A stretch of DNA of 42,021 nt, taken from a virus (lineage: Duplodnaviria; Heunggongvirae; Uroviricota; Caudoviricetes). The notes under the pieces were generated by a model. The model ran no database searches and had not been told where the DNA came from. It saw only the letters and a list, made by a program, of their open reading frames with translations. Shown here piece after piece: positions 1 to 908 of the stretch. The position numbers were made by a program, and so were the translations under genes. Position 1 is the first letter of the stretch. The number at the start of each line of letters is the position of its first letter. The stretch spans positions 1-42,021 of the IMG/VR virus record IMGVR_UViG_2703718855_000003; one strand, 5' to 3'.

Positions 1-672
1 TCATTTGCTTTCAACTGAAATTGATATGTCATCATCAAAATCCTGTTCAGGGAAAATATCCGCACCTTCAAATTGCAGAGGAGCTAAAATAATTCGCTCA
101 CTCCACGCGCTTACTCTGGCAAATCCGTCCTGATTCACCATCCCTACCGGATACGACACCTCACAGCGAATTTCTTTATTTGCCGCATCATAATAATACA
201 GAACGATATAAGTTCGGGTGCTATCTATCGGCGTGATCTCAGCTTTGCCTGAATGTAAGGTATCTGCTTGGAACATATCGAATGTACCCGGATTGTTGTG
301 AACAATCGAGCGAGTTGCCTCTCCCTTTGCATTTTTGGTTTTAGGCAATCCATCAGGACGCCCGGTATGTCCGTCACCTGAGGTAATAATCAGATTAACC
401 CCTTTGCTTGAATTAACGACCATTTCCATGCGATTGACTACTTCAGAAGACCAGCCGTTACCCTTACCAATCAGAATACGGCGAAGCGCGGCAACCATCT
501 CACTCCAAAAGCGGAATCCAGCATCCACTTTAGGGTGGAGCTTACTGGATTTGCGTCGCTCGTATAAAGCAGACATTAACGCATCGCGAATATCATTTTC
601 TGTAAAGCCCAGTTTACTAAGTACAAAATCCGAATCAATTCCTGTATGCAGAACACAATGAGGCATATTCAT
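1..672 (-). CDS. Hypothetical protein at the fibre-distal prophage end (possible cargo gene)
   Basis: Track ORF 1..690; first ATG with a GGGAGA Shine-Dalgarno is at 672 (MNMPHCVLHTG...); stop at 1-3. No family recognised. Confidence 0.4.
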   Translation of the reverse strand: MNMPHCVLHTGIDSDFVLSKLGFTENDIRDALMSALYERRKSSKLHPKVDAGFRFWSEMVAALRRILIGKGNGWSSEVVNRMEMVVNSSKGVNLIITSGDGHTGRPDGLPKTKNAKGEATRSIVHNNPGTFDMFQADTLHSGKAEITPIDSTRTYIVLYYYDAANKEIRCEVSYPVGMVNQDGFARVSAWSERIILAPLQFEGADIFPEQDFDDDISISVESK

Positions 673-694
673 GAAAGTTTCTCCCATCACTTTT

Positions 695-737
695 ACTTCT
701 TGATTTTATCATAAAATTTATGAAAAAATCAAGAAGT
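695..737. promoter_or_regulatory. Perfect 13-bp inverted repeat (candidate operator) just upstream of the 1..672 gene
   Basis: ACTTCTTGATTTT (695-707) and its exact reverse complement AAAATCAAGAAGT (725-737), 17-bp AT-rich spacer, about 23 bp upstream of the start codon. AU-rich stem without a clean T-run, so operator is more likely than terminator. Confidence 0.35.
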
Positions 738-908
738 GACACCCTACAAGCGATTGTAGACTTTCTCTTGTTTTCTTACGTTCCTGCTCTCCAATTGCGC
801 AATTGATTTCTTCAACAATGTGAGAGTACACATCATAAACCTCCGACTGCAGCCAGCAACCGGAGCCTCATTCTTCAGATACCAGAACAACTCACTGCGA
901 CCTATTCG

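Follow-up and report, generated by a model that had tools for sequence, protein, structure and literature searches.

A 43-bp palindrome as the predicted promoter-operator of a RosmerTA toxin-antitoxin cassette at an Escherichia coli prophage end

rmrT, rmrA and the window edge

We examined the left end of a 42,021-nucleotide stretch of caudoviral DNA (IMG/VR record IMGVR_UViG_2703718855_000003, positions 1 to 42,021; hereafter the window, meaning that whole stretch), where an open reading frame (ORF) at 1-672 is preceded by a long palindrome at 695-737. By profile comparison the ORF is the RmrT toxin of RosmerTA, a published anti-phage toxin-antitoxin (TA) system (Millman et al. 2022; Ernits et al. 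2023, PMC10440598), and the palindrome is probably the promoter-operator of its operon. The features that carry this reading are as follows.

1..672, minus strand: rmrT, toxin gene of the RosmerTA operon (PADLOC RmrT model PDLC03935)
673..694, minus strand: 5' leader of rmrT, with the Shine-Dalgarno sequence GGGAG at 685-681, 8 nt before the ATG at 672-670
695..737, no strand assigned: 43-bp near-perfect palindrome with outer arms at 695-707 and 725-737, inner dyad at 709-723 and centre at 716 (repeat search)
703..732, minus strand: predicted sigma-70 promoter with -35 TTGATT at 732-727, an 18-nt spacer and extended -10 TGaTAAAAT (TG at 711-710, hexamer TAAAAT at 708-703)

The rmrT reading frame runs on the minus strand from the ATG at 672-670 to a stop codon at 3-1 and encodes 223 aa, and PDLC03935 matches this protein end to end (E 1.4e-59). 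A first-pass annotation made from the letters alone had given the coordinates and the upstream palindrome correctly, but it counted 224 residues and a gap of about 23 bp between palindrome and start codon, where the window has 22 nt. Its description of the protein as belonging to no recognised family does not survive the match to the RmrT model, although searches of Pfam and NCBIfam gave no family for the 223-aa protein. A formerly unrecognised ORF is thus assigned to a named defence system. The NCBI annotation of rmrT is a 228-aa version that starts at 687; relatives keep only the start at 672 and its GGAG, not the one at 687. GGAGA and the ATG are invariant in an alignment of six loci, and the leader measures 15-36 nt in those related loci that have reliable start codons.

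The chromosome of E. coli RM11911 (locus L001) matches the window with 100% identity and continues it leftward. There the rmrT stop codon overlaps the start codon of rmrA (ATGA), and rmrA lies directly left of window position 1. Its product, of 368 aa, joins an Xre-type helix-turn-helix (HTH) domain (Pfam HTH_3, E 3.7e-10) to an ImmA/IrrE-type zinc peptidase (Peptidase_M78, E 4.6e-21) with the motif HELAH; it matches the PADLOC RmrA model PDLC03949 (E 1.6e-142) and, more weakly, the PADLOC models capP (E 1.3e-19) and capH (E 1e-5). RosmerTA in the literature consists of a Zn-peptidase antitoxin (HTH plus ImmA-type protease) paired with differing toxin families. Both hallmarks of the system occur here: an antitoxin with HTH and M78 domains, in L001 and outside the window, and an adjacent toxin gene in the same orientation that matches the RmrT model. 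On the 3' side of rmrA, L001 has a clean stem-loop with a T-run, followed by the chromosomal genes uspF, ompN and nifJ. The leftward extension that the first-pass annotation had recommended for finding a partner gene and the prophage boundary was therefore available in RM11911, and it supplied rmrA, a terminator and then uspF. The order rmrT then rmrA is kept in all related loci. Judged by this order and by the overlapping codons, rmrT is the first gene of a two-gene operon, to which rmrA is predicted to be translationally coupled.

The left edge of the window coincides with the rmrT stop codon, and since this codon overlaps the start of rmrA, the TA operon is split in two. The IMG/VR viral contigs L015, L019 and L022 end at the same toxin-antitoxin junction, which suggests that a prophage-boundary caller trims at the rmrT/rmrA junction and loses the antitoxin. 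For the annotation of prophage ends the lesson is practical: a boundary can separate a toxin from its antitoxin within one operon. As a separate observation on the antitoxin, the C-terminus of RmrA (L001 4898-4915 and relatives) ends in L(R/K)LV in ten enterobacterial loci, and the Ralstonia and Variovorax proteins have a similar L(H/R)VV followed by eight more residues; the L(R/K)LV end might be a degradation or interaction tag.

The palindrome, its predicted promoter and its conservation

Positions 695-737 read ACTTCTTGATTTT-ATCATAAAATTTATGAA-AAAATCAAGAAGT, with exact 13-bp arms 17 nt apart, as the first-pass annotation had read directly from the sequence. The 17-nt spacer contains a palindrome of its own (TCATAAA-A-TTTATGA, 709-723), so the whole of 695-737 forms one 43-bp palindrome with 20 of 21 pairs matched; the repeat search describes it as 21-nt arms, 95% complementary, around a 1-nt centre at 716. 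The 13-N17-13 arms thus exist as claimed, but the element is larger and nested, and the exactness of its arms is not the conserved state (see below). Its 20 of 21 pairs are the top palindrome score in the 42-kb window, where the runner-up scores 16. In 200 windows simulated with a Markov-1 model the highest score was 17, and a perfect 13-nt inverted repeat with a spacer of <=40 nt occurred in 2 of the 200; we rejected a chance palindrome on the basis of these simulations. A search for the palindrome elsewhere, also recommended in the first-pass annotation, returned no other half-site copy in the window with up to 2 mismatches allowed.

Only one sigma-70-like site was found in 1-1400, and it lies inside the palindrome on the rmrT strand. 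Its -35 falls in one outer arm and its extended -10 abuts the other, so that both elements are contained within the 43 bp and the dyad overlaps the operon's own promoter in the manner of a TA operator. Transcription is predicted to start near the downstream arm (about 695-697), giving a leader of ~23 nt. In the close group of relatives the TTG of the -35, the TG and the AAAT of the -10 are invariant, and distant relatives have TTGTTT-17-TATAAA in the same position.

To assess conservation we used 12 distinct elements from loci that had been reached by protein similarity alone, and the result is therefore not circular. The element stands upstream of rmrT in all 12 of these loci, 15-36 nt away, down to 30% RmrT identity. 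Five other enterobacterial genera have RmrT proteins that are 85-87% identical; upstream of the gene, nothing in these loci can be aligned beyond ~60 bases of weak similarity and the palindrome, which stands out as a sharply conserved block. The 43-bp element persists at 52-58% RmrT identity; at 41-43% (Yersinia, Serratia) and 30% (Ralstonia and Variovorax, Burkholderiales) it has a length of 44 bp. Compared with the window, the element is 75-88% identical, the rmrT coding sequence 60-69%, and the 60 nt upstream ~55%. Every genuine pattern match in viral contigs sits upstream of rmrT-rmrA, with the exception of two unrelated hairpins. These (L028 7317-7357 and L029 449-489) are a 41-bp hairpin with perfect 16-bp arms, ACTTCTTGTTTTGCTT…AAGCAAAACAAGAAGT, that was caught by a loosened operator pattern; neither rmrT nor rmrA was found near it.

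What is conserved is to a large extent symmetric. In the 43-bp group the invariant sense-strand bases are ACTTCTTGATTT (1-12), CAT (16-18), A20, TTATG (24-28), AAATCA (32-37) and GAAGT (39-43), and the 44-bp group reads ACTTCTTG(T/A)TTT, the inner dyad, and GGTATAAAAA(T/C)C(A/G)(A/G)GAAGT. Outside the -35, TG and -10, the conserved bases mirror each other, ACTTC with GAAGT and CAT with ATG. Across 17 distinct elements, pairs 1-5 and 10-12 are constant, and six pair positions (9 and 17-21) change on both sides with complementarity kept (A:T to T:A, A:T to C:G); pairs 6-8 and 13-15 are asymmetric. The inner dyad occurs as CATAA/TTATG, CCTCA/TGAGG or CCTTA/TAAGG, and it changes in step with the RmrA recognition helix, for which the first, second and third clades have SSRIVIEYEK, S(T/S)KSVAEYEK and EPRSISAYEK, respectively. 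The sense-strand base at element position 38 (window 700) is T in every relative outside E. coli and A in the window. Among viral-contig copies with 99.6-100% identical RmrT, it is T in L015, L017, L018 and L022 and A in L019 and L021, and two of the four T-bearing copies carry a second change at position 15. From this comparison, the perfect 13-bp arms reflect one recent strain-level substitution, and the element normally has a T:T mismatch.

Two further RosmerTA control regions were seen in phage records. In an Acinetobacter phage MD-2021a record (L034 1091-1126), a compact palindrome, TTAACAAGAA-N6-TTCTTGTTAA, lies over a -35-like TTGTTA and lacks the 43-bp nested form. Escherichia phage Tritos (L035 1270-1330) carries a RosmerTA pair of different RmrT and RmrA clades beside a hokD toxin gene, with two direct GGTTGACA repeats; no palindrome of the kind described here was found upstream of its toxin gene. 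Since the Tritos control region is unlike the 43-bp element, different RosmerTA clades use different control regions.

Genomic setting of the cassette

Two features upstream of the palindrome belong to the same segment.

738..939, minus strand: upstream non-coding part of the inserted cargo segment (similarity to a RosmerTA-free sibling resumes at 940)
841..865, minus strand: terminator-like hairpin, 3' of the DUF4376 gene and upstream of the rmrTA promoter, inside the cargo segment (consensus scan)

Window positions 1-900 are present in 8 of 5,426 complete E. coli genomes, and in >100 further E. coli genomes the match begins only at ~921-940, within the DUF4376 gene. RosmerTA is missing from a sibling prophage at the same uspF site (record NZ_CP026085), which shares the DUF4376, tail-fibre and assembly genes. 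When L001 was compared by BLAST with the RosmerTA-free sibling (L032), similarity extended up to ~150 bp past the rmrA stop and resumed at window 940, with 88% identity over 940-1292; in effect, 2,188 bp in L001 take the place of 165 bp in L032. Because a sibling prophage at the same site lacks this 2.2-kb segment, we regard the segment as cargo. By this comparison, window 1-940 is the upstream half of a 2.2-kb RosmerTA cargo cassette between the last gene of the tail-fibre region and the end of an E. coli prophage, near uspF. We also considered the palindrome as a mobility or recombination boundary and rejected this, since it lies ~200 bp inside the cargo segment and stays close to the rmrT start in every context.

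The neighbouring genes are a Caudo_TAP tail-fibre assembly gene at 1666-2211 and the DUF4376 gene, which ends at 909, so the first-pass placement of the ORF beyond the tail-fibre genes holds. The hairpin at 841-865 stands between the RosmerTA cassette and the tail genes; its T-run is weak, and such sites are no more numerous than in shuffled sequence. Elsewhere, the rmrT-rmrA pair occurs in the lambdoid replication/nin region (Serratia), beside antiterminator Q and lysis genes (Yersinia enterocolitica), next to gyrB (Ralstonia), and in defence islands beside GAAD/GASH/DO-GTPase2 genes or SIR2-STAND genes. We rejected rmrT as a phage tail component, given that it has no Pfam match, is absent from the sibling prophage and is found in these non-tail contexts. 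The first-pass annotation had named two outcomes that would have spoken against it, identity as a conserved tail component and absence of the palindrome from homologous loci, and neither was observed. Its reading of the ORF as a separately regulated accessory gene at the prophage end also stands, in view of the cargo status, the gene's own predicted promoter and the hairpin that separates it from the tail genes, but the gene is the first of two in an operon.

Several other features of the window were recorded. A perfect 14-bp palindrome, CAATTGCGCAATTG, lies at 792-805, ~55 bp upstream of the predicted operator and inside the cargo; it is present in the E. coli copies, is reduced to one CAATTG in the more distant L016, and did not appear in other genera. 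Apart from the repeat at 695-737, the window contains a single exact inverted repeat of >=13 bp, at 7510-7543; it is perfect and G+C-rich, has 14-bp arms (GAACCCCCCGACTG-N6-CAGTCGGGGGGTTC), and is probably a terminator. In the stretch that corresponds to the sibling prophage (window 909-1642 against L032 4479-8206), the assembly and DUF4376 genes of the sibling are separated by a tail-fibre gene of 3.1 kb; all that is left in the window is an N-terminal remnant of 33 aa (about 1541-1642) and a DUF4376 gene that has been shortened, and a deletion thus accompanies the cargo-bearing version. Finally, 5641-6816 (minus strand), among baseplate and tail genes, encodes a 391-aa protein that has, of the type I restriction R subunits, no more than their N-terminal, nuclease-type domain (HSDR_N, E 5.6e-14), and the gene is followed by a perfect 12-bp hairpin, TAAAAAACCCGC-N4-GCGGGTTTTTTA (5612-5639). 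PADLOC gave no match for this protein, and the gene looks like a second cargo gene.

Readings of the element and comparison with known systems

We consider it likely, on comparative grounds, that the 43-bp palindrome is the autoregulatory promoter-operator of rmrTA, bound by the HTH domain of RmrA, within a RosmerTA cargo cassette; RmrA binding, the transcription start and the trigger are parts of this model that we infer. RmrA, probably oligomeric and possibly joined by RmrT, would use its HTH domain to bind the dyad and would in this way block RNA polymerase, so that the operon represses itself. Phage infection would upset RmrA, relieving repression and freeing RmrT, which may then arrest or kill the cell and so protect the lysogen population. 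An RmrA tetramer would fit four half-sites, and either conserved N-terminal residues of RmrA (NPxRLxLARxRR) or RmrT acting as co-repressor could explain the 30-bp spacing and the invariant outer arms.

Several points weigh against this assignment. The predicted -10 of several close relatives lacks the usual A at -11 (TGAAAT, TTAAAT), and the promoter call is therefore secure in no other elements than the E. coli copies and those of the distant relatives with TTGTTT-17-TATAAA. A further ten loci were found by a DNA pattern requiring the arms and, having been selected on them, cannot count as evidence of conservation. The correspondence between recognition helix and inner dyad involves just three clades, which makes it suggestive and no more, and the outer arms are constant although the recognition helix differs between clades. 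From centre to centre, 30 bp separate the outer half-sites, more than a simple HTH dimer would span. The Acinetobacter member of the same PADLOC families has TTCTTG/CAAGAA half-sites in a different, compact arrangement. Lastly, the literature that we searched contains no description of RosmerTA regulation, including any promoter or operator.

One alternative is that the block is conserved only as the promoter of the operon, with a symmetry that serves no binding role and is partly an accident of AT-rich -35 and -10 elements. The -35 TTG, the TG and the -10 AAAT do all lie within the conserved block, and both the single substitution behind the window's perfect arms and the asymmetry of pairs 6-8 and 13-15 fit such an account. 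However, neither ACTTC, which precedes the -35, nor GAAGT, at the predicted start, is a promoter element, and the two mirror each other exactly in 12 of the 12 independently retrieved elements; the spacer bases (CAT…ATG, CC…GG) are conserved and change on both sides together; and 20 of 21 pairs are far beyond chance. We regard a role as promoter alone as unlikely.

A second alternative divides the element in two, leaving the inner dyad as the HTH site and having the outer arms read by something other than the RmrA recognition helix, with RmrT as the candidate co-repressor. Clades with different recognition helices, those of E. coli as well as of Ralstonia and Variovorax, share invariant outer arms, while the inner dyad changes with the helix, and the arms may therefore not be the HTH site. 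In its most specific form, ACTTC…GAAGT would be the DNA site of a restriction-endonuclease-like RmrT, a DNA-binding or DNA-cutting toxin sitting on its own promoter. The RmrT family is large (1,469 clusters at 50% identity, E <=0.001), and each of its proteins has a single domain and a length of about 210-235 aa. From 109 sequences an AlphaFold2 model was built whose mean predicted local distance difference test score is 80.7 and whose predicted template modelling score is 0.77. The fold match is weak: a Foldseek search of this model against the PDB returned nothing significant (E <=0.001), with template modelling scores of about 0.3, and a sequence-profile search of the PDB was likewise without a significant match, the best being BfiI (E 0.21). 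By inspection, the residues conserved across the family (D100, K116, D162, E167, R169, E171 and R193) fall outside the canonical PD-(D/E)xK pattern, and no such motif is evident among them. The family can be called possibly nuclease-like and no more; the structural data give a first, though weak, indication that its members may resemble nucleases and not act on membranes. Against RmrT as the reader of the arms, RmrT and RmrA always co-occur in this clade, such that comparison cannot separate them, and the conserved parts of the HTH domain (NPxRLxLARxRR) are equally possible readers. We hold a division of the element to be improbable, and give the specific RmrT site the same low standing.

The palindrome could also act after transcription, through read-through stability, processing or attenuation, or extrude as a cruciform. 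The sense RNA folds as a 13 + 6 bp hairpin (-29.9 kcal/mol for 101 nt, z = -5.2), and covariation alone cannot tell a DNA dyad from an RNA stem. Yet with the predicted promoter inside the element, only the downstream arm would be in the rmrTA mRNA. A terminator-like hairpin is located upstream, and the upstream contexts differ wholly between loci, so read-through is not a constant feature. All relatives share a conserved T:T mismatch in the middle of the outer stem and unpaired positions 13-15, with no compensating change. An E-value scan of 1-1400 found no Rfam family at threshold, only generic hairpin matches to microRNA precursor models far below their gathering scores. An action as RNA or as a single-strand hairpin seems quite improbable to us.

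An intrinsic terminator of the upstream tail-fibre transcription unit, to which an inverted repeat sited after the last tail-region gene might have pointed, is hardly credible and was rejected: the stem is AT-rich rather than G+C-rich, neither strand has a T-run after the repeat, the terminator scan called the hairpin at 841-865 and not 695-737, and the element travels with rmrTA into contexts without upstream tail genes. The first-pass annotation had preferred a protein operator to a terminator on account of the AU-rich stem and the missing T-run, and an operator is the best-supported reading, as the element lies upstream of a gene, overlaps the -35 and -10 and has a conserved symmetry, from which we infer protein binding.

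Compared with published RosmerTA systems, the locus is alike in its toxin-first two-gene operon, its HTH and M78 zinc-peptidase antitoxin, its matches to both PADLOC models and its occurrence in prophages and defence islands. It is unlike them in its toxin: the PDLC03935 protein is predicted to be soluble, with a weakly restriction-endonuclease-like fold, whereas the RmrT of Gordonia phage Kita, the only RmrT with a described activity, is membrane-depolarising. In other RosmerTA members the rmrA deletion could not be transformed, and rmrA was essential in transposon sequencing (Tn-seq). Published work further links RmrT toxicity to ClpX/ClpP, and one RosmerTA member, another than this locus, defends against coliphages. 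We conclude that the defence system at this locus is a known one and its regulatory site of an ordinary kind, and that the new elements, as far as the literature was searched, are the definition of a RosmerTA promoter-operator, its deep conservation and the weak fold hint for this toxin family. None of these findings overturns expectations for a TA operon. The comparative data do provide a concrete promoter-operator of 43-44 bp with defined invariant and co-varying positions, usable in gel-shift and reporter work.

Repressor control of an own or target promoter is familiar from type II TA operons and from the HTH/M78 pairs ImmR/ImmA, DdrO/IrrE and CapH/CapP. Like type II TA operators of the RelBE, MqsRA and HigBA type, the element described here is a palindrome over its own -35 and -10, followed by a short leader, in an operon whose antitoxin has a DNA-binding domain. 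Unlike the classical operators of 14-20 bp, it spans 43-44 bp and consists of two nested dyads with outer half-sites 30 bp apart. RmrA is a 368-aa enzyme fusion and not a small labile protein, and the published Clp-dependence of RosmerTA points at the toxin.

CapH/CapP of cyclic-oligonucleotide-based anti-phage signalling systems (CBASS), ImmR/ImmA of ICEBs1 and DdrO/IrrE of Deinococcus use the same two domains, and in each the repressor binds at the promoter of an operon for defence or stress. CapP cleaves the HTH repressor CapH, which is oligomeric and has to oligomerise in order to bind DNA, and CapH-CapP fusions exist. In contrast to these three systems, the two domains are fused here and encoded downstream within the regulated operon rather than divergently upstream, and RmrA is also predicted to neutralise a toxin. 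The locus does not have the separate, divergent genes of a CapH/CapP-type module, and the likeness is at the level of domains only.

Rousset et al. reportedly described, in 2022, hotspots of defence cargo at the ends of P2 and P4 prophages. The present case involves another type of prophage and another slot, after the DUF4376/tail-fibre region and next to uspF, and one alternative occupancy was compared, an empty slot. It resembles those hotspots in that a self-contained defence cassette, with its own predicted promoter and its own terminator, fills a slot of variable content that is bounded by a conserved late gene on one side and by the attachment-site end on the other.

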